A DNA stretch of 64,000 nucleotides from Octopus vulgaris (taxonomy: Eukaryota), in NCBI GenBank assembly GCA_951406725.2, contig OX597817.1, forward strand, positions 113,460,001-113,524,000, given 5' to 3'. How positions within the stretch are numbered: position 1 is the stretch's first letter; each line of letters begins with the position of its first letter. Positions 3,050 to 64,000 of this stretch are shown here, piece after piece. Position numbers and translations under genes: made by a program. The notes below the pieces were generated by a model. The model saw nothing but the letters and a program-made list of their open reading frames with translations. It made no database searches and was not told where the DNA came from.

Positions 3050-3095
<46 letters not shown>

Positions 3096-3459
3096 AAATG
3101 AGATAGGGGTTGAAAATTCAACCCACCATGGGATAATATATATCCAATATACTGCTAGATAGGTACCCAACAAAAATAATACATAGATGTTAAAAATTGT
3201 CAAGCAATCAGTTCATCTATTGTATTAAATGGGTAAAGGTAATAATATTACCGTAAATTAATACTACAAAATTAGAGAATGGAGAAACATACTTAAATCA
3301 GTAAAACATCAACTATCCGATGATACTCAATCCATACTTTAATACACCATTACATATGAGTAAAGGCAATATATAAAATGAAATGAGATATACAGTAATA
3401 GTAAAAGTAAAAAGATAAAGAGATATAAGTAAAAAATTTCAAATATAATATGCAAATAA

Positions 3460-3580
3460 ATCAAAACTGACAGCTGTTTCGGCAGTGAGGACAGTCATAC
3501 CTCATTTAACCTATAAGCCATAAAGGCAGGTATAAATGAGGCATTAACAAGGATGCCCCACGGCCTCTTCAGAGAATTAA
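3460..3580 (-). ncRNA. Hammerhead ribozyme (type I, long stem II), copy 1
   Basis: Reverse complement of the motif at 9611-9730. Confidence 0.8.
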
Positions 3581-3906
3581 ATTAAATTTGTTATAATAGT
3601 GAAAAATATTATATAATCATATACATATAAATATAAAAATGTAAAATATAAAAACTTATACATCATAATGCTACACTTATATAATATAATACACATTTGT
3701 ACAAAAAGGAAGGTAAACAGAACAATATAAAACAAAATATATAACAGTGTATATATTAATATTAATAAGTACCGATATTATACATATTTGGCTAATAGTT
3801 TTTTTTAATAAAAAGAGGGCTAACACATATGGAGATGAAAAATAATAATTAAATCCGTGGTACAGTTCATAAAATTCTAAAGCTATAAAAGTTAATAAAA
3901 ATTACT

Positions 3907-3950
<44 letters not shown>

Positions 3951-5696
3951 TAATAATAATAAAAAAATACTAAAAATAGATACCATTAAGTTAGCACCAA
4001 GTCCATCCTTTCAAGATCGAAATAACTATGAGTTAAGAAATGCTGACCACTAGGTAAAGAAAATTTAGATTAATTCGATTGGCTATTGGTTTGAAATTTA
4101 AATCACAAAAGAAAATTATACGGTTGGTTAGTCAAGGAACGCCAATATTCACACACGCATCTACAGATCAATCGCACATACACACATAGTTATATGTATA
4201 TACATACACTTATACACATACATATTAACAAGTAACAACCAGCACTTAGATAAACAAAAAAGGGAAGCAACTATGCTAACATTTAGTCCTTCAAAATTAT
4301 AACTGAGCCTTAATAACAGAAAAAGAACCATCCATGCATTCTATAAAATATTTAATTTAGATATAAATATATTTTTAAATATCAGTATGTTACTAATTCA
4401 GATAATTATTTCATGGGTAACTTAAAATTTATAACACCGGTTTGTTACAGAGTAAACATACGGTTGTTAGGTTTATCGTAAGTTTGTTATGATTTTAAGT
4501 ACGCTAAATTATAAAATATAAAATATAAAATATATATTAATTTAAATATTATAAATAAGTCACTTATTAACTTAATAAAAATAGTGCCATAATATACCAG
4601 TTTAGGCATTAAAGAATAGAAGGGGAAGTATTAATGTAAACGCTTATGAGAACATCACAGAAATTTTAAATAAATTTTATATTATAAAGACTTAAGATGA
4701 AAAGAGATAAAATAAATAAGAAGGAATAAATACGAAGGAATAAATACGGTTGTACACATAATTATAAGTACAAACTAGTATATATGTATTCATATATTAT
4801 TAAAATTAAATACAAATAAATGATAGATATGTATGTATAAAACTACACCAGTATAAGTAAATAAGTAAAAAATAAATAGGTAACAAATTAGATGACTTGA
4901 TATGTATGTAAACATCTACACTTAAATAGGCAAATAAATAAATGAATAGAGGACTAGATGCAAAGATTGATAATATTACAATAAAATGGGAAATAAATAA
5001 AAATAAATAAAGTGAATATATATATTTTATATATATTTTATATTGTTGAAAGTAAAAATGTATGGAAGGATAGTTTAAAGTACAGATCCAGAGGACTATA
5101 GATATAAACTAAATATATGAGGCTGGTAATAATTATAAAGCAAAATGCATGTAAATGAGAAAATGAAAAAAGAAAAATGAAAAAGGTTTATCAGTGAATA
5201 GCATAAGATACAAATTAAGGTGAGTACAAAAAGACCAAATATATAATAAAAACCTTCCAAATAAACACATACAAAAAACCTATAATCTCAACCTAAACCC
5301 ACCAAACTCATAAAAGGCTCTCATATATTACATATTATACAATATCATTACATTATCTAGAGCTAGGTATCTAACCAAGATATACATATATACTATGCAA
5401 TATACTATGCAATATTGGAAAACTTCAAAAATCACACATTACAAGGCAAATACCAAAATGAATATGCTATTTTATGTCATATTGCGTTTCTCTTAAAAAA
5501 ACAAACAAAAACCCACATACAAAAATCAAGGAACCAATAATACTAGACACATCCATTAATTATTATACAAATGTAGCTATAAAAATTATAAAATTATGAA
5601 ATTTATAAATTGTATACTTTAGAATTATAGAGGACCACAGGTATATTTAGTTAAAGAAGGGAATTAAAAAATTAATAATAGTGGAAGTGCTAAGTT

Positions 5697-7492
5697 CTAT
5701 TTGAATCTAGAAAAGGTGAACGGTAGCCTATGAATACAAAAGAAGTTTTTCTCATTAATGTTGTTAATAATTTGCCGACCCGCTTTAATAATGAAGAAAA
5801 TTTCATTAATACATAGAGAGCATTTTTTATTTTTTCCATTATACACAGGTGCTGAAGTTAGTATTTTCCAGTTTAATCTAAAATCTAAGTTCTTACTTTT
5901 AAGTTCCCAAATGTATGCACTTAGCCCTGTAGAGTACATTCTATTTTTATTCCTAAAAGTATATCTGTGATAATTCCATCTTTGTTTTATGCTATTCATA
6001 GTTGCACCGATATACACCCTACTACTCAATTGTGTATCTACAGTGCATTGGTAAACTACCTCCTTCCTGAGGCATTGATTACCAAATACACATTTATTTT
6101 TATTTCTGCAATTACAAAGATTAACAGAATGAGGAAATCTAAGATTGGACACCACCCCTATACTACTATTCACATTATAAGTGTTACAATTGTTATCATC
6201 ATCCAAACCCAAAATCAACGAATGAGTTAATTTCACATTATCGGCTATATTTCTATCACTAGTACTAGTATTGGTAGTAGTAGTATGATCTATTACATTT
6301 ATATTATCTCTGACAGGTATGGTGTACTCATTATTAGTAAGGAGGTTGTTCCCATTTGTTCCAAGAAAATTTCTATTCCTATTATTAATGAAGAGGGGCA
6401 AGTTATCCTGGTCTAAATTCAATTTTCTATCCTTATAGAAGTGATCCAGTTTCTTGTTATTAAAAGAGGAGATAATGGTGGCTAGATTATGAGTAATGCT
6501 ATATCCCACTCTAACAGTACCGTTGTTAATTAAAGGACTAAATTTATTCATATCCTTACCAAAATGCCTAAAAATAACATTATGCAAAGCTCTCACTATG
6601 TTTGTTTTAATCTGCATTGCATACGGGATAATCAACCAAAGAGTATCCTTATCAGAATTAGGATTGCCTATAGAATTAATGTTATTTGTGAAAATCCTAT
6701 TCGTAGACCAACTCATAGGATTACTATTCTTACCACTGTTATTATTATATCTATCTATATCAATATTACCATGGTTATTGCGCAAGTAAACTTTACCATT
6801 ATCATGTCTACCATAAGTTTTAATTCGTATATTATTATTAATATTACTACTATTACCCGTATGCTTAGATCTATTTGAGCTACCATTCACCTTTCCAAGG
6901 TTAACGTCACTTCCACATTTATTATAGGTGTTATCATATATTCTATTTTTACTATTCTTATGTATATTGTTGATTATCCTAAATCTATTTGTGTTGTTCC
7001 TGATAGTTCTACCTCCATTAGGGGGTTCCCCTTAGGTATAAACCAAATCTTACTTTTATATCCTGCCTTAAGTAATGCTGCATTGTATCTATCACAGTGT
7101 TTGTTAAAAATTTCCTCGTTTGAGGATAAACTAGAAATTCTCTGACTAATGCTACGCACTAGTGCATTTTTAATTTGGGGGGGTGATTACTAGAACGGTT
7201 AATGTATATTAGGTTAGAATTAGGTTTAATATAGGGTTCATGTAAACCATTAGTAATGTTACAATTAACATCTAAATAATTAGCAGAATAATTTTCACTT
7301 TCAATGATAATGGATAGGCCGAAGCTTTTAAAAAATTTATTTATTCTTTTTTTCAGAAGATCTAATCTCCTATTTGATGTATTCCTAACACAAAATAAGG
7401 CGTCATCCCTGTATAATCCACCTTTTAATTCAGGGAATTCCCTACTAAAGTTATCTAATAGATACATCCCAACTAGATCAGTCACCTCCGCT
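5697..7492 (-). pseudogene. 5'-truncated inverted copy of the Penelope-like ORF (RT C-terminal half + GIY-YIG)
   Basis: ORFs 7159-7485, 6974-7159 and 5697-6890 translate identically to the + strand ORFs at 11293-13081. Confidence 0.93.
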
Positions 7493-9232
7493 TTCCACTA
7501 TTATTAATTTTTTAATTCCCTTCTTTAACTAAATATACCTGTGGTCCTCTATAATTCTAAAGTATACAATTTATAAATTTCATAATTTTATAATTTTTAT
7601 AGCTACATTTGTATAATAATTAATGGATGTGTCTAGTATTATTGGTTCCTTGATTTTTGTATGTGGGTTTTTGTTTGTTTTTTTAAGAGAAACGCAATAT
7701 GACATAAAATAGCATATTCATTTTGGTATTTGCCTTGTAATGTGTGATTTTTGAAGTTTTCCAATATTGCATAGTATATTGCATAGTATATATGTATATC
7801 TTGGTTAGATACCTAGCTCTAGATAATGTAATGATATTGTATAATATGTAATATATGAGAGCCTTTTGTGAGTTTGGTGGGTTTAGGTTGAGATTATAGG
7901 TTTTTTTTTGTATGTGTTTATTTGGAAGGTTTTTATTATATATTTGGTCTTTTTGTACTCACCTTAATTTGTATCTTATGCTATTCACTGATAAACCTTT
8001 TTCATTTTTCTTTTTTTCATTTTCTCATTTACATGCATTTTGCTTTATAATTATTACCAGCCTCATATATTTAGTTTATATCTATAGTCCTCTGGATCTG
8101 TACTTTAAACTATCCTTCCATACATTTTTACTTTCAACAATATAAAATATATATAAAATATATATATTCACTTTATTTATTTTTATTTATTTCCCATTTT
8201 ATTGTAATATTATCAATCTTTGCATCTAGTCCTCTATTCATTTATTTATTTGCCTATTTAAGTGTAGATGTTTACATACATATCAAGTCATCTAATTTGT
8301 TACCTATTTATTTTTTACTTATTTACTTATACTGGTGTAGTTTTATACATACATATCTATCATTTATTTGTATTTAATTTTAATAATATATGAATACATA
8401 TATACTAGTTTGTACTTATAATTATGTGTACAACCGTATTTATTCCTTCGTATTTATTCCTTCTTATTTATTTTATCTCTTTTCATCTTAAGTCTTTATA
8501 ATATAAAATTTATTTAAAATTTCTGTGATGTTCTCATAAGCGTTTACATTAATACTTCCCCTTCTATTCTTTAATGCCTAAACTGGTATATTATGGCACT
8601 ATTTTTATTAAGTTAATAAGTGACTTATTTATAATATTTAAATTAATATATATTTTATATTTTATATTTTATAATTTAGCGTACTTAAAATCATAACAAA
8701 CTTACGATAAACCTAACAACCGTATGTTTACTCTGTAACAAACCGGTGTTATAAATTTTAAGTTACCCATGAAATAATTATCTGAATTAGTAACATACTG
8801 ATATTTAAAAATATATTTATATCTAAATTAAATATTTTATAGAATGCATGGATGGTTCTTTTTCTGTTATTAAGGCTCAGTTATAATTTTGAAGGACTAA
8901 ATGTTAGCATAGTTGCTTCCCTTTTTTGTTTATCTAAGTGCTGGTTGTTACTTGTTAATATGTATGTGTATAAGTGTATGTATATACATATAACTATGTG
9001 TGTATGTGCGATTGATCTGTAGATGCGTGTGTGAATATTGGCGTTCCTTGACTAACCAACCGTATAATTTTCTTTTGTGATTTAAATTTCAAACCAATAG
9101 CCAATCGAATTAATCTAAATTTTCTTTACCTAGTGGTCAGCATTTCTTAACTCATAGTTATTTCGATCTTGAAAGGATGGACTTGGTGCTAACTTAATGG
9201 TATCTATTTTTAGTATTTTTTTATTATTATTA

Positions 9233-9276
<44 letters not shown>

Positions 9277-9610
9277 AGTAATTTTTATTAACTTTTATAG
9301 CTTTAGAATTTTATGAACTGTACCACGGATTTAATTATTATTTTTCATCTCCATATGTGTTAGCCCTCTTTTTATTAAAAAAAACTATTAGCCAAATATG
9401 TATAATATCGGTACTTATTAATATTAATATATACACTGTTATATATTTTGTTTTATATTGTTCTGTTTACCTTCCTTTTTGTACAAATGTGTATTATATT
9501 ATATAAGTGTAGCATTATGATGTATAAGTTTTTATATTTTACATTTTTATATTTTTATATTTATATGTATATGATTATATAATATTTTTCACTATTATAA
9601 CAAATTTAAT

Positions 9611-9730
9611 TTAATTCTCTGAAGAGGCCGTGGGGCATCCTTGTTAATGCCTCATTTATACCTGCCTTTATGGCTTATAGGTTAAATGAGGTATGACTGT
9701 CCTCACTGCCGAAACAGCTGTCAGTTTTGA
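9611..9730 (+). ncRNA. Hammerhead ribozyme (type I, long stem II), copy 2
   Basis: ct-CTGAAGA-GGC[~80-nt hairpin]GCC-GAAAC-AGCT-GTC^ag: intact core, palindromic stem III ACAGCTGT, predicted cleavage after 9722. Confidence 0.85.
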
Positions 9731-10240
9731 TTTATTTGCATATTATATTTGAAATTTTTTACTTATATCTCTTTATCTTTTTACTTTTACTATTACTGTA
9801 TATCTCATTTCATTTTATATATTGCCTTTACTCATATGTAATGGTGTATTAAAGTATGGATTGAGTATCATCGGATAGTTGATGTTTTACTGATTTAAGT
9901 ATGTTTCTCCATTCTCTAATTTTGTAGTATTAATTTACGGTAATATTATTACCTTTACCCATTTAATACAATAGATGAACTGATTGCTTGACAATTTTTA
10001 ACATCTATGTATTATTTTTGTTGGGTACCTATCTAGCAGTATATTGGATATATATTATCCCATGGTGGGTTGAATTTTCAACCCCTATCTCATTTTATAA
10101 CCTAAATTTATCTTTTGAGGAACCTGAATTGCTCATATTGGTGTAATATAAGCATCCATTTATTGATTTAAATATTAATAGTGCATGTGAATACACCCTA
10201 GTGTAGTATATTTGTTCCTTTGATCATTACTGCTAGAAGA

Positions 10241-13081
10241 ATGGAGAAAATACTGATCAATTCATCAATGAAGGATGTACCTATCCCTACCAAAGACCAT
10301 TACACTAAAGAACTAATTTATAGAATGAATGAATTCATCCATAGGATCAGATGGAGGATTTTCCACCATGAGAACTATAATAATAAAATAAACCAACAAC
10401 ACACTGGGGAAACGATCCGTAATGGAATTGGAAGCACCTATGAAGAAATATTAAAACTAACAGGCACTACATTTAAATCTAGAAAGTCTCCTCCACCAAA
10501 TATACATCTAGACAATTTTGAACAAGAACTATGGGAGACTGTAAAAACATAAAATTTAGAAATCATCCTTTAAGATATAACCCGCACCAAAGAGAATTGA
10601 AAGACTTAATTAGAACTCTCAAAGGTAAGAGCGGCATTCTAACACATTCTGACAAAACCAACAACATCTACAACATGGACATTACTGCATATCATGATCT
10701 TCTACACAAGGAAATAACCAAGAAATACAAAGTAGTACCTTCTAGTACACTTAGAAAACTGAACCTGGAGATCAGAGAAATCATATTTGACTACTACCTA
10801 GAAGAAAAAACGGAACCCTACACCCCATCCAGACCGAGAATTACACTAAAGGATCATAAAGAGAATTTTCTTGGAAACACACAGGTCAGATTAATTTGCC
10901 CCACTAAATCTGACTTAGGCAGACTAAGTAAACTCATTCTGGATAAATATCTACCCACCATCCGCAATAAAATCAAACTAAACCTTTGGAAGAATACTCA
11001 GGGTGCTTTGGATTGGTTTTCTACCATTAAGGTCTGTGACAGTAACAACTTTAGCTATAATAGAAATAAATTTATACAATTCGATATACAGAATTATTAC
11101 ACTTCAATTAACCCTATTATATTAAATAAGTCCTTAATTTTTGCTAGAAAACACACTAAACTAAGTATGGGGGAGATTAAGGTTATACTAACAGCCAGGA
11201 AAACTTTAATAGAGTTTGATAATAAACTTTGGGCTAGAAAGGACACACCCAACTTGTTCGATATCACAATGGGATCGCCGGACTCAGCGGAGGTGACTGA
11301 TCTAGTTGGGATGTATCTATTAGATAACTTTAGTAGGGAATTCCCTGAATTAAAAGGTGGATTATACAGGGATGACGCCTTATTTTGTGTTAGGAATACA
11401 TCAAATAGGAGATTAGATCTTCTGAAAAAAAGAATAAATAAATTTTTTAAAAGCTTCGGCCTATCCATTATCATTGAAAGTGAAAATTATTCTGCTAATT
11501 ATTTAGATGTTAATTGTAACATTACTAATGGTTTACATGAACCCTATATTAAACCTAATTCTAACCTAATATACATTAACCGTTCTAGTAATCACCCCCC
11601 CAAATTAAAAATGCACTAGTGCGTAGCATTAGTCAGAGAATTTCTAGTTTATCCTCAAACGAGGAAATTTTTAACAAACACTGTGATAGATACAATGCAG
11701 CATTACTTAAGGCAGGATATAAAAGTAAGATTTGGTTTATACCTAAGGGGAACCCCCTAATGGAGGTAGAACTATCAGGAACAACACAAATAGATTTAGG
11801 ATAATCAACAATATACATAAGAATAGTAAAAATAGAATATATGATAACACCTATAATAAATGTGGAAGTGACGTTAACCTTGGAAAGGTGAATGGTAGCT
11901 CAAATAGATCTAAGCATACGGGTAATAGTAGTAATATTAATAATAATATACGAATTAAAACTTATGGTAGACATGATAATGGTAAAGTTTACTTGCGCAA
12001 TAACCATGGTAATATTGATATAGATAGATATAATAATAACAGTGGTAAGAATAGTAATCCTATGAGTTGGTCTACGAATAGGATTTTCACAAATAACATT
12101 AATTCTATAGGCAATCCTAATTCTGATAAGGATACTCTTTGGTTGATTATCCCGTATGCAATGCAGATTAAAACAAACATAGTGAGAGCTTTGCATAATG
12201 TTATTTTTAGGCATTTTGGTAAGGATATGAATAAATTTAGTCCTTTAATTAACAACGGTACTGTTAGAGTGGGATATAGCATTACTCATAATCTAGCCAC
12301 CATTATCTCCTCTTTTAATAACAAGAAACTGGATCACTTCTATAAGGATAGAAAATTGAATTTAGACCAGGATAACTTGCCCCTCTTCATTAATAATAGG
12401 AATAGAAATTTTCTTGGAACAAATGGGAACAACCTCCTTACTAATAATGAGTACACCATACCTGTCAGAGATAATATAAATGTAATAGATCATACTACTA
12501 CTACCAATACTAGTACTAGTGATAGAAATATAGCCGATAATGTGAAATTAACTCATTCGTTGATTTTGGGTTTGGATGATGATAACAATTGTAACACTTA
12601 TAATGTGAATAGTAGTATAGGGGTGGTGTCCAATCTTAGATTTCCTCATTCTGTTAATCTTTGTAATTGCAGAAATAAAAATAAATGTGTATTTGGTAAT
12701 CAATGCCTCAGGAAGGAGGTAGTTTACCAATGCACTGTAGATACACAATTGAGTAGTAGGGTGTATATCGGTGCAACTATGAATAGCATAAAACAAAGAT
12801 GGAATTATCACAGATATACTTTTAGGAATAAAAATAGAATGTACTCTACAGGGCTAAGTGCATACATTTGGGAACTTAAAAGTAAGAACTTAGATTTTAG
12901 ATTAAACTGGAAAATACTAACTTCAGCACCTGTGTATAATGGAAAAAATAAAAAATGCTCTCTATGTATTAATGAAATTTTCTTCATTATTAAAGCGGGT
13001 CGGCAAATTATTAACAACATTAATGAGAAAAACTTCTTTTGTATTCATAGGCTACCGTTCACCTTTTCTAGATTCAAATAG
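10241..13081 (+). pseudogene. Penelope-like RT/GIY-YIG polyprotein, ~947 aa if three -1 frameshifts are repaired
   Basis: N-terminal SMKDVPIP..RIRWR, SDKT, QFDIQNYY, TMGSPDSAE, LYRDD, YLDV, SNHPP; Cys knuckle CNCxxxxxCxxxxxC; VVY..YIG, R..H, CxxC..E, C-x-H. Split at homopolymers 10543-10547, 11595-11601 and 11747-11757. Confidence 0.92.
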
Positions 13082-15164
13082 AACTTAGCACTTCCACTAT
13101 TATTAATTTTTTAATTCCCTTCTTTAACTAAATATACCTGTGGTCCTCTATAATTCTAAAGTATACAATTTATAAATTTCATAATTTTATAATTTTTATA
13201 GCTACATTTGTATAATAATTAATGGATGTGTCTAGTATTATTGGTTCCTTGATTTTTGTATGTGGGTTTTTGTTTGTTTTTTTAAGAGAAACGCAATATG
13301 ACATAAAATAGCATATTCATTTTGGTATTTGCCTTGTAATGTGTGATTTTTGAAGTTTTCCAATATTGCATAGTATATATGTATATCTTGGTTAGATACC
13401 TAGCTCTAGATAATGTAATGATATTGTATAATATGTAATATATGAGAGCCTTTTATGAGTTTGGTGGGTTTAGGTTGAGATTATAGGTTTTTTGTATGTG
13501 TTTATTTGGAAGGTTTTTATTATATATTTGGTCTTTTTGTACTCACCTTAATTTGTATCTTATGCTATTCACTGATAAACCTTTTTCATTTTTTCATTTT
13601 CTCATTTACATGCATTTTGCTTTATAATTATTACCAGCCTCATATATTTAGTTTATATCTATAGTCCTCTGGATCTGTACTTTAAACTATCCTTCCATAC
13701 ATTTTTACTTTCAACAATATAAAATATATATAAAATATATATATTCACTTTATTTATTTTTATTTATTTCCCATTTTATTGTAATATTATCAATCTTTGC
13801 ATCTAGTCCTCTATTCATTTATTTATTTGCCTATTTAAGTGTAGATGTTTACATACATATCAAGTCATCTAATTTGTTACCTATTTATTTTTTACTTATT
13901 TACTTATACTGGTGTAGTTTTATACATACATATCTATCATTTATTTGTATTTAATTTTAATAATATATGAATACATATATACTAGTTTGTACTTATAATT
14001 ATGTGTACAACCGTATTTATTCCTTCGTATTTATTCCTTCTTATTTATTTTATCTCTTTTCATCTTAAGTCTTTATAATATAAAATTTATTTAAAATTTC
14101 TGTGATGTTCTCATAAGCGTTTACATTAATACTTCCCCTTCTATTCTTTAATGCCTAAACTGGTATATTATGGCACTATTTTTATTAAGTTAATAAGTGA
14201 CTTATTTATAATATTTAAATTAATATATATTTTATATTTTATATTTTATAATTTAGCGTACTTAAAATCATAACAAACTTACGATAAACCTAACAACCGT
14301 ATGTTTACTCTGTAACAAACCGGTGTTATAAATTTTAAGTTACCCATGAAATAATTATCTGAATTAGTAACATACTGATATTTAAAAATATATTTATATC
14401 TAAATTAAATATTTTATAGAATGCATGGATGGTTCTTTTTCTGTTATTAAGGCTCAGTTATAATTTTGAAGGACTAAATGTTAGCATAGTTGCTTCCCTT
14501 TTTTGTTTATCTAAGTGCTGGTTGTTACTTGTTAATATGTATGTGTATAAGTGTATGTATATACATATAACTATGTGTGTATGTGCGATTGATCTGTAGA
14601 TGCGTGTGTGAATATTGGCGTTCCTTGACTAACCAACCGTATAATTTTCTTTTGTGATTTAAATTTCAAACCAATAGCCAATCGAATTAATCTAAATTTT
14701 CTTTACCTAGTGGTCAGCATTTCTTAACTCATAGTTATTTCGATCTTGAAAGGATGGACTTGGTGCTAACTTAACTGTATCTATTTTTAGTATTTTTTTA
14801 TTATTATTATTTTTATTATTATTATTATTATTATTAATAGTAATTTTTATTAACTTTTATAGCTTTAGAATTTTATGAACTGTACCACGGATTTAATTAT
14901 TATTTTTCATCTCCATATGTGTTAGCCCTCTTTTTATTAAAAAAAACTATTAGCCAAATATGTATAATATCGGTACTTATTAATATTAATATATACACTG
15001 TTATATATTTTGTTTTATATTGTTCTGTTTACCTTCCTTTTTGTACAAATGTGTATTATATTATATAAGTGTAGCATTATGATGTATAAGTTTTTATATT
15101 TTACATTTTTATATTTATATGTATATGATTATATAATATTTTTCACTATTATAACAAATTTAAT

Positions 15165-15285
15165 TTAATTCTCTGAAGAGGCCGTGGGGCATCCTTGTTA
15201 ATGCCTCATTTATACCTGCCTTTATGGCTTATAGGTTAAATGAGGTATGACTGTCCTCACTGCCGAAACAGCTGTCAGTTTTGAT
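15165..15285 (+). ncRNA. Hammerhead ribozyme (type I, long stem II), copy 3
   Basis: Same motif as 9611-9730, ~200 nt before the element's 3' end. Confidence 0.82.
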
Positions 15286-15484
15286 TTATTTGCATATTAT
15301 ATTTGAAATTTTTTACTTATATCTCTTTATCTTTTTACTTTTACTATTACTGTATATCTCATTTCATTTTATATATTGCCTTTACTCATATGTAATGGTG
15401 TATTAAAGTATGGATTGAGTATCATCGGATAGTTGATGTTTTACTGATTTAAGTATGTTTCTCCATTCTCTAATTTTGTAGTAT

Positions 15485-39358: not shown

Positions 39359-40294
39359 GATCTTTTCTAAAAGATGGACAGAATTTTCTACTTAACTAAA
39401 TAATTTGAAACTTCGTATACTGGTAGAATGTGTCAAAAGAAAACATTAGTTTCAATTAGTTTTTTTGAGAAAAATGTATTTTGTAACTTTTACGTAGTTT
39501 AATTCTTCGAATTTTAACCAATCGTATTCTCTGTTTTGAGCTCAATTCATTTGCTGCTGTGTTATTCATCCTTATCACTGTCTTCTGTCTTCAAAGGCTT
39601 CTCCCATGTTTATTTCAATGTCATCCCTGACTTACGGAACGATTACCTGTGTGTGTGTGTGTGCTTTTGTTGTGTATGTATGTGCGTGTGTGTGTGTGTT
39701 TTTGTTGTGTATGTGTGTGTCTTTTTGTTGTGTATGTGTGCGTGTGTTGTGTATCTCTTAAATCGATGAATTTCGTCGCCCAATAAAAATATTAACGATA
39801 TTTTTTTAACTTTGATATCGTTAATATTTTTATTGGGCGACGAAATTCATCGGTTTAAGAGATACACAACAAAAAACACATAACACAACAAAAAGACATA
39901 CACAGCAAAAACACACACACACATACACAACAAAAAGACATACACAACAATAACACACACAACAAACGCACACACATACACAACAAAAACACACACACAC
40001 ACACAGGTAATCGTTCCGTAAGTCAGGGATGACATTGAAATAAACATGGGAGAAGCCTTTGAAGACAGAAGACAGTGATAAGGATGAATAACACAGCAGC
40101 AAATGAATTGAGCTCAAAACAGAGAATACGATTGGTTAAAATTCGAAGAATTAAACTACGTAAAAGTTACAAAATACATTTTTCTCAAAAAAACTAATTG
40201 AAACTAATGTTTTCTTTTGACACATTCTACCAGTATACGAAGTTTCAAATTATTTAGTTAAGTAGAAAATTCTGTCCATCTTTTAGAAAAGATC
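39359..40294. repeat. Near-perfect 936-bp palindrome (foldback/MITE-like)
   Basis: Arms 39359-39801 and 39815-40294 around a 13-nt spacer; they differ mainly in an internal (TG)-rich microsatellite. Confidence 0.92.
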
Positions 40295-56165: not shown

Positions 56166-56399
56166 TACATGTATGTATGTATGTGTGTGTGTGTGTATAT
56201 GTGTGTGTATGTATGTATGTATGTATGTAGTACAAAGTAAGATAGGGGTTATGAGGGTAACCCACTATAGGATATCAGTTATCCAATATACTGCTGGTGA
56301 AGCACCCAAATACTAAATACATAAGTGCTTATAATTGCAATGCAATTAATTCATTTATTGTATTGGATGGGTGAAGGTAAAATATTTTACTGTAAATTT

Positions 56400-59135
56400 A
56401 TAATGGTTGGCATCCTTTTTGTCTCGGGAGACAATGGAGTTGCGCATAAAGTAGTCTAGTCCGGCTTTTACATTTCATGTCCTGATACATTTCCTGCTGT
56501 GGCTGTGTAGTCCTATCCTGGACAAACACTCTGGCAGGTACCGCAAATGTAGCGAAGACTGTTCCTGGCTGGTTGTAATGCCATAGTTTCTTGTTGACGT
56601 CTTTTCTTGTCTTTCCATTTCTCCTCTCTCTCTCTGTCACTCCTTTGTATTTCCTCTCCTACGGTACGTCGCCAGTCTCCACGGTTGCCGGCAACTGCCT
56701 CCCAACTGCTAATATTGATGTTGCAGGCCTTCATGTCTCTTTTGCAAACATCCTTGTAACGTAAGAGCTGTCTACCCACAGACCTAGTACCCCTAGCAAG
56801 CTCTCCATAGAGTATGTCCTTGGGGATTCTGCCATCTTTCATACGGCTAACATGCCCAAGCCATCTCATACGTCTTTGTGTGAGGAGTGCAAACATGCTT
56901 GGTATTCCTGCTTGCCTGAGGACATCTTTGTTGGGGATATGGTTCTACCATTTGATGCAGAGGATTTTCCGGAGGCAGCGCAGGTGAAAGATGTTTAGGC
57001 GACGCTCTTGGCGTGTGTATAGCGTCCAAGTCTCACTTCCATACAGTAGAGTGCTAAGTACACATGCCTGGTAGATCTTCATTTTCGTGGTCTTGGTCAG
57101 CTTATTGTTGTCCCAAGCCCATTTGGAGAGTTGGGCCATCGCAACAGCTGCCTTGCCAATGCGTATATTGAGCTCAGCATCGAGGGATAGGTTGTAGGTG
57201 ACGGTAGAGCCCAGATAGGTAAACTTCTCCACCTCTTGTAATCTATGGTCTCCAATATGTATGTTTGGGATGTCCAATGTAGCCTGACCCATGACGTTGG
57301 TCTTCTTAAGGCTGATAGCTAAGCCAAAGTCATTACATGCTTGCTCAAAACAGCCCTTTGGAGGGCTTCTTCTGTGTGTGATACCAGAGCGGCATCATCA
57401 GCAAATAGCATCTCCTTGATCAGGACGTTTCTGATTTTGGTCTTGGCATGCATGCGCGAGAGATTGAACAGTTTCCCGTCACTTCTACTGTGCAGGAACA
57501 CTCCATCATCTGATGTCTGAAAGGCATGTGAGAGTAAGAGCGAGAAGAAGATGCCAAACAATGTAGGAGCAAGGACACAACCTTGCTTTACCCCGTTTTT
57601 TATTTGGAAGGCGGCTGATGTTGAACCGTTGTGCTGTATGGTGCCTTGCATGTCATCATGGAAAGACTTGATGATCCTCAGCAGCTTTGGTGGACATCCG
57701 ATTTTTTGGAGCAGGGTGAAGAGGCCTGTTCTGCTTACCGAGTCAAAGGCCTTTGTTAGATCAATGAAGGCCATATATAATGGCATTCTCTGCTCTCTGG
57801 ACTTCTCCTGAAGTTGGCGTATGGAGAATATCATATCGATAGTTGATCTGCTTCTTCTATAGCCACATTGCGATTCTGGATAGATTCGAGAAGCAAGTAG
57901 TTGTAGCCTGGCCAGGATAACGCGGGCAAAGGTCTTTCCAACAGTGCTTAGAAGAGATATTCCACGGTAATTGTTACAATCACCACGGTCACCTTTGTTT
58001 TTGTAAAGCGTAATGATGTTAGCATCCCACATATCCTGAGGGATTGTACCCTCTTCCCAGCACTGACACAGAAGCTCATGAAGGTGCCGAAGCAGGATGG
58101 TGTTTTTGCTGGCTTTGATGATCTCTGAGGGGATGCCGTCTTTTCCCGGAGCCTTGTTTCTTGCTAGGGAGTCAACAGCCTTGATGAGCTCTGCTATAGA
58201 TGGCGGACTGTCAAGTTCGCACATGACTGGCAAGATCTTGACACTCTCAACTGCAGCCTCAGCCACTGTAGTCTCCTGTGAGTAGAGATCCTGGTAGTGC
58301 TCCACCCATCTATCCATTTGCTTGCTTTGATCCCTGATGAGATCTCCAGTAGTTGATTTCAGAGGGGTTGACTTGGTTGCGGATGGACCAAGAGCCTTCT
58401 TCAAACCGGCATACATTCCACGGGTGTCGCCCCTGTCAGAAGCTGACTGGATACTCTGACAGATTTCCTGCCAATACCTATTTGCACAGTGTCTGGCTGT
58501 CAGTTTGGTTTTATTTCGTGCCTTTCTGAGTTCTTCGAGTGACTTTGTAGAAGAGTCGCTCTTGTATTGCATCAGAGCTGCACGCTTTGCTTCGATAACT
58601 GGCTCCAGCTCTGAGAGCCCAGCAATCTGGGTTTTGCCTTTCTCTCATGCCAAAAGTATCTATTGATGTCGTATACAAAGCTTCCCTGATGTAGTTCCAC
58701 CTACTTTCAGCAGAGGAGGTTGGGCAGCCACTGAGGGCAACCTTGATAGCAGCAGCAAAACATTTTCGCAGTGTAGGGTCCGAGGTTCTGGCAGTGTTAA
58801 TGCGTGGTCGGCCCACTTTCTTGGAGCGGTGGACTTTTTTAGGTAGAATCCTCACCCTACTTCTAATTAGTGAGTGGTCTGTGTCACAATCCGCGCTCTG
58901 GTAACTGCGGGTCAATAGAGTAGAATTCAGAAAGGATCTCTGTGTAATGATGAGATCCAGCTGATGCCAGTAGTGAGATCTTGGATGTCTCCAAGATGCC
59001 TTGTGGGATGGCTTGTTGGTAAAGAATGTGTTTGTGATGCACAGGTTGTGGTATGTGCAGGATTCAAGTAGTCTCTGACCATTGTCATTCATGTTGCCAG
59101 TACCAAAGTGTCCAATACAAATGGGCCACGAATCA
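56400..59135 (-). mobile_element. RTE-clade (BovB-like) LINE, 5'-truncated within the APE domain, frameshifted
   Basis: NDNGQRLL, WRHPRS..LD, CDTDH (APE); KAPGKDG, YRGISLL, FIDLTKAFD, GVKQG, LFADD (RT); RWLGHV; 3' stem tgtctcccgagaca..ggatgcc. Confidence 0.95.
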
Positions 59136-60169
59136 TTATTTTTATTGTATTATTAATTTGCATATTGATGTATATTGTTTTGTTCGATTTTCATGTTCCT
59201 ATTTATATAATTAATAAATAATATGAAATTGTAATATCTGTAAATTGATGATCGAAATGAATTTGTTCCTCCTTTTTCTTATTTGTATTATATATATATA
59301 TATATATATATGTATTTATCTGTATGTATGTATAAGTGTGTGTATATATATGTGTGTGTGTGTAATTATCTGCCTTGAAGAACTTAGTTGAATGAATTAA
59401 CCCCAGTACTTATTTTTTTGCTTTAAGTCTTATTATTCTATTGCTCTCTTTTTGCTGAACTGCTAAGTTGCAGAGATGTAAAGAAACTAACACACACATT
59501 TATATATATATGTGCATGTATATAGATTTGTGTGTCTTTGTATTTGAGTTTGTGCCCCTTCCACCACTCTTTACAACCAGTGTTGATTTGCTTAGATCCT
59601 TGTAACATAGCAGTTCATCAAAAGAATTCAATAAAATAAGTATACAAGCTTAAAACAAAAAAAAAGTACTGGGTTCAATTTAGTCAACTAGAACCTTTTA
59701 AGTGGTGCCCCAGTATGGTCACATTCCAATGACTGAAACAACTAAAAAGTTAAAAAGTATGTATGTCCCAAATTGTAGGCTACAGTTTTGCCCCTAAATA
59801 GCTGAAATTGTGCTTTGGGACTCATCTTTTGAAGATCAAGGCCATAGAATATAAGACTTAATCTTATACTTCCTATAACCCCAAGTAGGGCCAGATACTA
59901 CAAATAGTTATTTATATAATTAGTTTTGTAGTATTATGTCATATGTTTACATTCTAAATTCATATACCACCAGCATTAACTTTGCCTTTCATTCTTCTGC
60001 CTGCAGCTGATGAAATTACTATCAGTTATATGCCAGCTTCAGCATTCACTCCCCAGATGAAGCGAGGTTGTTAAAAAAGCTAAACTATCTTTAATTTGGT
60101 TTTCTTGTTTATCCTCATTTATGGTCATGAATGTTGGGTGATGACCAAAGGAATGTCATCTCATATACA

Positions 60170-61207: not shown

Positions 61208-64000
61208 TCATCTGTATCTACAGGGAATAATTATTCGTCGTCCACTTTTTGTGGTTTTATTATTTTGTAGTGTTGAATTCTGTAGTTGTGCTGTTTTTGT
61301 TTTTTCATGCGTGTTTGTTGACTTTGGAAATATATTTTCATAATCTAATTCTTCTGTTATGCGAACGTGTTCGTTTGTTTTAAGAATATGTTGTCTATTT
61401 CGTTTGACTGTATTTCCTTCCTCTGTTATTACTAAGTATGAATGAGGTTGCTCTAGTTTTTTAATTATTTTGCCCCTTCTAAACCAATTGTTGTTAAACT
61501 TAATTCTAACCGTGTCGTGTGGTTTTAACTCTGGGAGTTCTGTTGTAATGTTTGATTTCTTCTTTTCGTGAGGCCTGATACCAATTTTGTCGTGTAGTAT
61601 GTTTGGGAGATTTGTTCGCAATGTTCTATTCATTATTTGATTTGCAGGGGATGGTGCACCATTTTGTAATTTAGTCGTGCGTAATGCTAAGAGCGCTAAC
61701 TGAGGTTCTTCGTCACTTTTGAATGCCTTTTTTAGCGTCTTTTTTATTGTCTGTATATTTCTCTCAACCATGCCATTCGCTTGATGATAATGTGGGCTTG
61801 TCTTCGTGTGATGAAAATGCCAATTTTTTGCAAATTTTTTGAATTCAGCCGAATTGAATTCTGGACCGTTGTCACTTACAACTGTTTGCGGAATTCTGAA
61901 TTTAGCAAAAGTTTCTTTTAATTTTTTGATTACGGTTTTTGTCTGGCAATCATTTATTTCGTGTAGATCAAAAAATCTTGTTGTATAGTCAATAATTGTG
62001 ACATACGAATTTCCAGACAGGTGAAATACGTCTGTACCCACTTTGGTCCATGGTGTAGTAGGTATTTCATGATTTATTAGTGGTTCGGCTGCTTGTTGAT
62101 TTTTGTAGTCAATGCAGTATGAGCATGTGTTAATCATGTCTTTGATTTGAGCGTTAATGCCGGGCCAGTATATACATTCCTTCGCTCTCTCTATGCATTT
62201 TTCGATACCCATGTGTCCGGTATGTATTTCCTGTAGAGCTTCTCTACGTAATGACTTAGGTACAATTATTCTTGAACCTTTTAGAACAAGACCATTGACG
62301 ATTGATATTTCATCACGAACGGATACGAATGGTTTGATGTTTATTGGTATTTTGTCTTTTGGGGGCCATTCTGTTCTTGTATATGTGACGAGTGTCTGTA
62401 GAGACGGGTCGTCTGCAGTGGCTTCTTTATACTCTTTTAATTTAGTGTCGGTTATGGGGTAATTTTTTATTACTGCATGAATGTGCGATTTCATATCTTC
62501 GTCTGGTACTTCTGGAGTATTTTGCTCAAGGTATGCACGTGATAGGGTATCTGCAACAATTGATTCTTTACCAGGTATGTGGTTTAGGTCAAAATCATAT
62601 CTTTGTAATGTTAGTAGAAATCTTTGGATTCTGGGGGGGCATTTAGTGATCGATTTTTTGAATATTTGCTTCAACGGTTTATGGTCATTTTCGATTCTGA
62701 AATGAGTTCCGTATATAAACTGATGAAATTTCTTGCATGCGAAAACTATACTGAGAGCTTCGCTCTCTATCGGACAGTAGTTTGTTCCGCTTGAGTTGTT
62801 GCACGAGATGCAAACGAAACAGGTAGCCATCTTTCGTTGTGTTTCTGCTCAAGTATCGCTCCGAGCCCATGCTTACTAGCATCTGTAGTTATTTTTATTG
62901 GTAGATCTGGATCATAAAATTGTAGCACTGGTTTTCTGGTAATCATTTCTTTTAGCTTTTTTATTGCTTCGATTTGTGGTTTGTCGAATGACCATAACGT
63001 GTCACTCTGTAGAAGCTGGCGCAATGGTGCTGTGACTTCGGAGTAATTAGATAAAAATTTACATAGGTAATTTGTCATACCTAGGAATCTTTGTAATTCT
63101 TTTTTACTTGTTGGCAGTGGCATGTGAATGATTGCTTGTACTTTGGTTGGATCTTGTTTTATCCCTTCGCTGGTTAATATATGCCCAAGGTACTTGATTT
63201 GTGATTCATAGAAGATACACTTTGATTTATTTAACTTTAATCCGTGCTTTCGGATTCGATCGAAAACTTGTTGTAGTCTATTCGTGTGTTCTTCTAAAGT
63301 GTTGGACCAGATTATGATGTCATCCTGTGAATTTCTTGCTCCTTCTATGCCCTCTATTATTTTTGAAATTTCTTTTTGGAAAACTTCACTGGCGCTGTGA
63401 ATTCCAATGGGTAGTCGTGTGAAGCGATACCTTCCAAAAGGTGTGTTGAACGTTAAAAGATGGGAGCTTTCTTCGTCAACTGGAATTTGCCAGTATCCAT
63501 TAGATGCATCGAGTTTTGAAAAATATTTAGGGTTATGCATTTGTGCAAAAATGTCCTCCGCTGTAGGGAGTTTGAAATGTTGCCTTTTTATGGCTTTGTT
63601 TAGATTCTTGGGGTCTAAACAGAGTCGGAGTTTTCCGTTGGCTTTTTCAACGATGACTAGGGAATTTACCCAGTCTGTAGGTTCACTAACAGGTTTTATG
63701 ATATCTAATTCTGTCATTCTTTTTAATTCTTTGTTGAGTTTTTCTTTTATAGAAAAAGGAACCGATCTTGGTGGATGAATTACAGGAGTTATTTGTGGAT
63801 CCACTGTGATATGATGTGTTATTGACAAAGTGCCGATTTCTCCGAAACAGTCTTCATATTTTTCTAATATGTCGTTTGTGTTCAACGAATTTATTTTTGA
63901 AATTCTCTGAATTAGGTTCAGATCTTTAGCTGTCTTTGCATCTATAACTGCGTGCGAGTTTGTTTTTGCAACAATGAATTTTATTTGCTTTGATAATTCT
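61208..64000 (-). pseudogene. Gypsy pol (RT, RNase H, integrase) with one frameshift near 62780
   Basis: LRLCLDP, LDASNGYWQ, SQDDII, TDASKHGLGA, NYCPIE, DHKPL, H..H..C..C zinc finger, D..SDNGP..E. Confidence 0.92.

Follow-up and report, generated by a model that had tools for sequence, protein, structure and literature searches.

Hammerhead ribozymes in Penelope-like repeats, their cleavage as dimers and a circle model for their role are already in print (PMC8557442, PMC4209133), and the comparisons with published work made here apply to the accessible parts of the sources cited. The closest relatives of the motif described below are the type I hammerheads of Hydra-clade Penelope-like elements (PLEs; Craig 2021, PMC8557442, File S2). 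These lie on the sense strand within a pseudo-LTR and have CUGANGA and GAAA cores and a short palindromic stem III; the elements that carry them insert into (TA)n targets and encode the same protein motifs as ours. The octopus motif shares all of these properties and differs in its dimensions. Stem II consists of 3-7 bp with a 3-10-nt loop in 26 of 26 published Hydra rows, including Hydra-1_Obim from Octopus bimaculoides, and spans at most 24 nt, whereas it measures 85 nt here. Stem I has 2-3 bp compared to mostly 4-7 bp in the published rows, the unit 5.6 kb compared to generally less than 3 kb, and the tail about 170 nt compared to 30-40 bp (PMC8557442).

An unstable palindromic stem III and a G10.1-C11.1 pair are also found in minimal PLE hammerheads, for which cleavage as dimers and a circular template have been proposed (PMC4209133; Lunse et al. 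2017 via PMC6765202). However, the helix II described there as 'larger than usual' has 7-8 bp, and the family in our window lacks the extra nucleotide after A9 (PMC4209133). Wide cores have precedents in PLE-X1_sMoe, the widest entry overall (9-bp stem and 35-nt loop, 53 nt), and in the Naiad 'HHR_half_core' entries, one of them listed for Naiad_Ovul, with half cores 35-50 nt apart (PMC8557442). These cases are isolated, flagged as deviating and presented in the accessible material without covariation, whereas we find a paired rod with spacings of up to 85-122 nt and tens of thousands of long-armed copies.

PAc Poseidon resembles our element in its AT-rich targets and in the two internal start sites for reverse transcription that define the tail downstream of the ribozyme, but its ribozyme overlaps the ORF start and its tail is short (PMC11167929); here the ATG follows the predicted cut site at a distance of 518 nt, and about 170 nt separate the two ends. 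Non-LTR retrozymes likewise form tandems of non-coding units that carry type I hammerheads (PMC7229834; bioRxiv 10.64898/2026.07.22.740005). The 535-nt arrays described below appear to be the same in kind, while published invertebrate retrozymes have units of ~170-400 nt with canonical short stems and the window feature belongs to a protein-coding 5.6-kb element. As to the role of PLE hammerheads, the literature proposes excision and circles, and in the one in vitro study available insertion did not depend on the ribozyme.

A full-text literature search brought up no report of long-armed octopus hammerheads; Lunse 2017, Arkhipova 2017 and the descriptor limits of Cervera 2014 lay outside the comparison and may bear on the stem II lengths already known. 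In their accessible text, a 2026 repeat annotation of Octopus vulgaris does not mention 'ribozyme' or 'hammerhead' and the 2026 retrozyme preprint (bioRxiv 10.64898/2026.07.22.740005) does not mention 'octopus'. New here are the 85-nt stem II, the genome-wide occurrence of long stems, the covariation of stems I-III, and genomic ends that lie beyond the cut site by ~205 or ~378 nt, together with private substitutions shared between repeats.

A hammerhead with an 85-nt stem II

The window, i.e. the whole 64,000-nt stretch of Octopus vulgaris DNA that was analysed, contains the motif in three places (Table 1). A preliminary description made from the sequence alone had noted the core CTGAAGA, a stem II of ~85 nt, GAAA, a palindromic stem III and GUC, all of which are present; together with A15.1-U16.1 and GUC as the N-U-H cut site they make up the core features of a type I hammerhead. 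Stem II is indeed long and stable (-38 kcal/mol, equalled by none of 200 shuffles; -27.7 kcal/mol for the opposite strand), while the two hairpins named within it proved to be nested segments of one long bulged hairpin. Its G10.1-C11.1 closure has a pair probability of 0.98 in the window copy and is G-C or G-U in 19/19 aligned motifs. The open-ended stem I adjoining the cut site is, as had been remarked, short and imperfect, with two Watson-Crick pairs (CU/AG) that can be called firm, two U-U mismatches and four weak pairs. The motif likewise stands out as a GC-richer island in an AT-rich UTR (0.47 versus 0.19 upstream and 0.23 downstream). A terminal loop 2 near the core is absent, and an internal loop could take its place in the canonical tertiary contact between loops 1 and 2. 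In engineered hammerheads, stem II can accept large insertions.

Table 1. Positions of the hammerhead motifs and of the parts of their host element in the window
Feature	Position	Strand	Remarks
Type I hammerhead motif, copy 1, upstream pseudo-LTR	9611..9730	+	predicted cut after C9722
5' core CUGAAGA (DNA CTGAAGA)	9619..9625	+	
85-nt stem II hairpin, G10.1-C11.1 closing pair	9626..9710	+	fold z -5.5; covariation
GAAA 3' core (9711-9714), palindromic stem III ACAGCUGU (DNA ACAGCTGT, 9714-9721) and C17 (9722)	9711..9722	+	
Hammerhead copy 2, downstream pseudo-LTR	15165..15284	+	predicted cut after 15276
Hammerhead copy 3, inverted arm	3461..3580	-	predicted cut after 3469
Upstream pseudo-LTR (2.2-kb 3' UTR, ribozyme, first 208 nt of 5' UTR)	7493..9930	+	self-BLAST 98.0% to 13092-15484
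Downstream pseudo-LTR	13092..15484	+	stops in (TA)n 208 nt beyond cut site
Predicted unit-length RNA between cut sites, 5,554 nt	9723..15276	+	
Hydra-clade RT-linker-GIY-YIG ORF	10241..13081	+	frame lost near 10545, 11596, 11750
~170-nt 'tail' between genomic end positions +208 and +378	9931..10100	+	
Inverted 5'-truncated arm	3091..7492	-	start equivalent to 11286; end at +378 in (TA)n

In a scan of the window with Rfam 15 (E<=1), none of the 26 matches was to a hammerhead, so the covariance-model search suggested in the preliminary description did not recover the motif. It was likely missed because of its 85-nt stem II; an Rfam match defines the curated models only and not the class of hammerhead ribozymes.

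Folding further indicates how the motif might work. In the monomer, stem III has a pair probability of only 0.001-0.002, and its palindrome is engaged with the core CUG in the best fold. In a two-molecule fold both stem II arms remain intact and the palindromes form an 8-bp ACAGCUGU duplex of -11.1 kcal/mol. A single motif is thus predicted to be inactive, stem III being usable in these models only between two motifs, which conforms to the earlier suggestion that the tandem copies can dimerise. The modelled dimer agrees with the published dimer cleavage (Cervera 2014). That the youngest subfamily, to which the window copy belongs, has only two firm stem I pairs is to be counted against cleavage.

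The host element

Self-BLAST of the window revealed a single compound insertion between (TA)n tracts, in which the inverted, 5'-truncated arm abuts a direct copy (7493-15484) that amounts to 1.44 units and is made up of a 2.4-kb repeat, the ORF region and a second 2.4-kb repeat. The three 120-nt motifs are identical, as had been reported, with the limits of the second and third copy now placed as in Table 1; since they are parts of one insertion they lend each other no independent support. A partial tandem with pseudo-LTRs, an inverted 5'-truncated arm and a tail at one end are hallmarks of Penelope-like elements. The distance between the two predicted cut sites bears out the unit of ~5.55 kb proposed earlier, and units of 5,573-5,603 nt are found in three other tandems.

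The protein carries the motifs IRWRIF, SDKTNN, YRDD, CNCRNKNKC (CxCx5C linker), a degenerate GIY-YIG (VY..YIG), CSLCINE and NNINEKNFFCIHR (N..CxH), and no CCHH. Hydra-clade proteins are defined by an RWK-type motif, DKT and a CxCx5C linker, with CxxC preceding E, CxH following N and no CCHH (Craig 2021, PMC8557442). By this definition, and by a by-eye match to Hydra-1_Obim and Hydra-1_Ajap, the predicted protein places the element in the Hydra clade. The identification of the motif as the type I hammerhead of a Penelope-like element is supported. A search gave 105 homologues at E<=1e-10, the top one being named from Octopus sinensis (99% over 39% of the query) and others coming from Argonauta and O. 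bimaculoides. The RT and GIY-YIG domains are identified by motifs and homologues, while sequence searches against Pfam and PDB failed to detect the protein; neither a search for longer homologues nor one of viral contigs produced a match. The ORF region comprises ~945 codons, compared to ~700 aa in most homologues, and the linker between RT and endonuclease (11750-12650) is enlarged by Asn-rich low-complexity sequence.

None of five near-full-length copies (window, L031, L032, L035, L212) has an unbroken ORF, and the frame breaks in the window lie at three homopolymer runs. A comparison of seven loci showed a shift at one site common to 6/7 and, at a second site, a length that differs from that of the named protein in 7/7. 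Young copies (L030-L033, L035, L212) commonly carry the window's frame shifts near 11596 and 11750, in homopolymers between RT and linker. Judged from these common shifts, defective lineages appear to move in trans, with recoding or assembly errors in homopolymers as alternatives; the window locus, its ORF being broken, would need protein supplied in trans. A first look at the genome gave 1,288 candidates, and the best 40, which were scored, were all identical over 201 nt (40/40), as would be expected of a young, high-copy family.

Long stem II across the genome

For a relaxed census we used the pattern CTGANGA-N-GAAACNNNNGTH at spacings of 8-30, 38-68 and 69-99 nt (31-37 left out), with the backwards pattern as control. 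The counts were 15,344 (control 1,196), 40,620 (1,656) and 12,652 (1,266), respectively; they are rough, because the 69-99 bin contains unrelated repeats and nested matches count twice. A strict pattern gave 334, 14,304, 2,615 and 665 matches at 8-37, 38-68, 69-99 and 100-130 nt, with 9, 15, 15 and 21 backwards matches. With 15 backwards and 2,615 forward matches at 69-99 nt under the strict pattern, the motif in the window is not a chance match. The strict pattern undercounts short forms, since most of these carry an extra base after A9, and a first impression that 98% of the motifs are long (334 short versus 17,584 long) was discarded as a pattern artefact in view of the 15,344 short-spaced matches of the relaxed census. 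Among motifs with a 4-nt palindromic centre, long arms appear to outnumber short ones by about three to one.

Similar motifs were also reached independently of the pattern. In 30 loci of sister families, chosen by their downstream UTR and not by the motif, the 3' core reads GAAACAGCTGTA in 14/14 places that hold one and the 5' core is CTGANGA in 8/11, with G8 changed in three of the 11, all older copies. An old 3'-end fragment of a sister Hydra element in the window (56179-56402, -; 73% identical to 9928-10099), itself without a ribozyme, has 2,126 candidates in the genome. The sister families reached through it have the motif at the equivalent place with the same palindrome and arms of 94-110 nt.

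Three families with arms of 53-60 nt sit downstream of endonuclease pieces that are 34-38% identical to that of the window element. We had considered the abundant 53-60-nt families to be Naiads, which is unsupported, as three of them adjoin these Hydra-like pieces; five core motifs are absent from the accessible part of the Craig supplement (PMC8557442). A remoter Hydra-type endonuclease fragment (30% identity) at L214 2622-3362 (-) points to more Hydra lineages in the genome.

Covariation and selection on the fold

From 146 distinct motifs we dropped four with a spacing below 38 nt and kept chance matches in. Among the remaining 142, a fold with z<-2 was found in 102 and a stem closed next to the core in 120. 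Clustering at 65% identity yielded 33 clusters. Pairs 1, 2 and 3 of stem I, which no search pattern included, conform to Watson-Crick rules in 27, 26 and 26 of them, each with all four pair types, compared to shuffle means of 8-11; the observed values were reached in 0/5,000 shuffles, a count that is not a probability because the clusters are related. Pairs 4-6 show no excess over shuffles. The central pair of stem III is Watson-Crick in 26/33 clusters, nine of which have GC, a class partly fixed by a search pattern; without this class the figure is 17/24.

For stem II we aligned 19 motifs of the window's lineage (16 of 28 listed, near-duplicates being omitted, and three others), the rows being hand-chosen and related. 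In the named structure, which was derived from the same sequences, 91.9% of cells are paired compared to 29-46% in slid controls, and eight pairs are altered on both sides. A count of further pair types in this alignment was not above shuffles (488 of 500). RNAalifold with 16 distant representatives kept only ~7 basal pairs of stem II, and a single consensus fold for all sister families, with a common distal structure, was dropped for this reason. In single-sequence folds the arm is nevertheless predicted to remain a hairpin, with lengths of 49-122 nt, while its distal register, sequence and length turn over. The aligned sequences thus argue for selection on stem II pairing within the window's lineage, and the covariation of stems I, II and III across families for a hammerhead motif that is real and selected. 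The preliminary description had looked to conservation or covariation of the core across family copies, and covariation is what was found.

It had also proposed that stem II might be a binding module for the reverse transcriptase. A sequence-specific module of this kind is weakened by the few basal pairs kept, by the range of lengths and by the abundance of short-stem forms, and a role in binding the RT is made less attractive by the fact that copying starts 200-380 nt downstream. A more radical view is that the window's subfamily does not cleave at all and that the hairpin is a protein-binding, translation or RT-pausing element whose core is kept for the sake of the fold. Selection on stem II pairing within the lineage would fit this, as would the two firm stem I pairs and the alternative monomer fold. 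However, the core is kept at every position, as is the N-U-H cut site, stem I covaries across families immediately next to that site, and distal stem II has no common sequence or register between them, so that we consider the absence of cleavage very improbable.

Copying as recorded in genomic copies

A (TA)n tract lies within 400 nt of 54 of the 58 motifs of the window's own family (family A). The distance from the cut site to the tract is +173 to +211 in 31 of the 58, +357 to +387 in 21 and in between in two; the remaining four run on to the ORF side with no tract within 700 nt, and none ends before +173. The sister families (69 motifs) have the same two modes, with 33 motifs in the first (+163 to +216) and 24 in the second (+316 to +413), and in a family with 53-55-nt arms (26 motifs) 17 end at +45 to +79 and eight at +187 to +221. 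Genomic ends are thus found ~205 or ~378 nt past the predicted cut site and never at the site itself, and inverted pairs have one end of each kind. The two end modes would fit the two internal RT start sites of PAc. Copying runs through the cut site, and does so twice in the direct copy of the window, since copies end past it; a linear unit RNA copied once cannot account for this. Similar sequences, CCATTCTCTAATTTTGTA at 9905-9930 and CCCCTATCTCATTTTATA at 10080-10100, precede the two end positions; they are kept in sister families that have diverged by ~26% and are candidate RT start signals.

The repeats themselves also record the copying process. They differ by 1-3% between loci, and in four direct tandems 66 locus-private substitutions are present in both repeats and eight in one (both/one: 11/4, 8/0, 6/0, 41/4). 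In three inverted pairs the corresponding numbers are 0/1, 8/8 and 1/2. Private substitutions common to both repeats indicate that the two are re-made from one sequence in each cycle, and copying likely passes through a monomeric, unit-length intermediate. The 535-nt units of a non-coding family, whose stem II measures 49 nt, form arrays of at least four; they differ by 0-3 substitutions within an array and by 15-18 between the two arrays compared. Taken together, the ends, the homogeneous repeats and the arrays would be accounted for most simply by a circle, with jumps, strand transfer and gene conversion as alternatives.

The reading towards which we lean, with little better than even confidence, is that the hammerhead likely cleaves itself only when paired with another through its palindromic stem III, likely aided by protein, and releases a 5.6-kb unit RNA that is probably circularised and reverse-transcribed for more than one round. 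It builds on the core, the 85-nt stem II, the palindrome and the covariation of stems I-III observed across families. As a lone motif is predicted to be inactive, two would have to pair through ACAGCUGU, and cuts after 9722 and 15276 would release the unit RNA. At nicked (TA)n DNA, the RT would then begin within this RNA at points ~205 and ~378 nt beyond the cut site and read back across the joined site, which would yield 1.44 units in one orientation and the inverted arm in the opposite one. Stem II would serve as a structure-selected but sequence-tolerant arm that unites the core halves in a 20%-GC transcript, rather than as a sequence-specific binding site.

Several observations on related systems count against cleavage in this role. 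The PAc ribozyme needs protein, its mutants leave in vitro insertion unaffected and no RNA-seq read begins or ends at its cut site in the accessible data (Frangieh 2024, PMC11167929), while minimal PLE hammerheads cleave poorly even as dimers (Cervera 2014, PMC4209133). Gene conversion would make the repeats homogeneous as well, as would strand transfer on terminally redundant RNA. The ribozyme could be real but off the main path: the RT would copy uncleaved, terminally redundant RNA from internal starts, homology-guided strand transfer would restore and homogenise the repeats, and cleavage would serve translation, turnover or late processing. This would be in line with the genomic ends lying 200-380 nt from the cut site, with the use of unprocessed RNA for PAc insertion in vitro (PMC11167929) and with the Naiad PLEs, which lack canonical hammerheads and still build tandem and inverted structures of this kind (PMC8557442). 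Yet arrays of four or more near-identical 535-nt units would need one transfer after another, the palindrome is under selection across families, as expected if motifs act in pairs on multimeric RNA, and the PAc assay, as far as its accessible description goes, scored initiation on short RNAs and not the regeneration of repeats. We regard an off-path ribozyme as unlikely, while giving it real weight.

Alternatively, linear unit RNAs might be cut out and the RT, on reaching the 5' end of one of them, might jump precisely onto the 3' end of that RNA or of a sister molecule, with no circle being formed. The genomic products would be identical to those of a circle, and the three repeats of the window, which are mosaic for two variants, would fit switching between slightly different molecules. 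The PLE literature compared, in its accessible parts, gives no precedent for precise, repeated jumps onto a 2',3'-cyclic-phosphate end, though, and the related retrozymes accumulate as circles (PMC7229834), which makes such jumps decidedly improbable in our estimation. The family is young, has long repeats that record copying and offers genomic evidence for a monomeric intermediate, so that the role of its hammerheads is directly testable in tissue RNA.

A broader proposal is that ~50,000 octopus Hydra-clade and retrozyme hammerheads with a stem II of 38-130 nt have been missed by curated models, that the 5.6-kb family transposes via a ribozyme-made 5.6-kb circular RNA, and that the long arm is a protein-docking switch which licenses cleavage. 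As a whole we hold this to be speculative and doubtful. If true, it would provide the first circular intermediate known for a protein-coding Penelope element. Apart from this proposal, the long arms mean that ribozyme censuses with short-stem models miss tens of thousands of motifs in this genome, and that claims of 'no hammerhead' for other PLE clades merit a recheck with wide spacing.

Two candidate observations were discarded. L206 and L207, with a spacing of 5.6-5.7 kb, were taken for full elements and are local tandem duplications of a truncated PLE end with ribozyme and host DNA, lacking an RT. A footprint of A-to-I editing was also considered, but A>G changes (24.1 per 1,000 sites) are not in excess over T>C changes (19.4 per 1,000 sites).

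Further repeats

The 535-nt arrays at L211 (G000:C1:16524500-16531000) and L142 are retrozyme-like; they include an inverted arm and meet (TA)n at +159 or +287. Other arrays with a spacing of ~550 and ~594 nt are present among the census matches listed. Elsewhere in the window, an inverted repeat of ~935 nt (39359-40294, 89.6%), MITE-like or foldback, is the source of sub-threshold Rfam miRNA matches. A LINE-type RT fragment occupies 57319-59149 (-), and a Ty3/Gypsy-like region with RT, RNase H and integrase (61208-64000, -) extends beyond the window.
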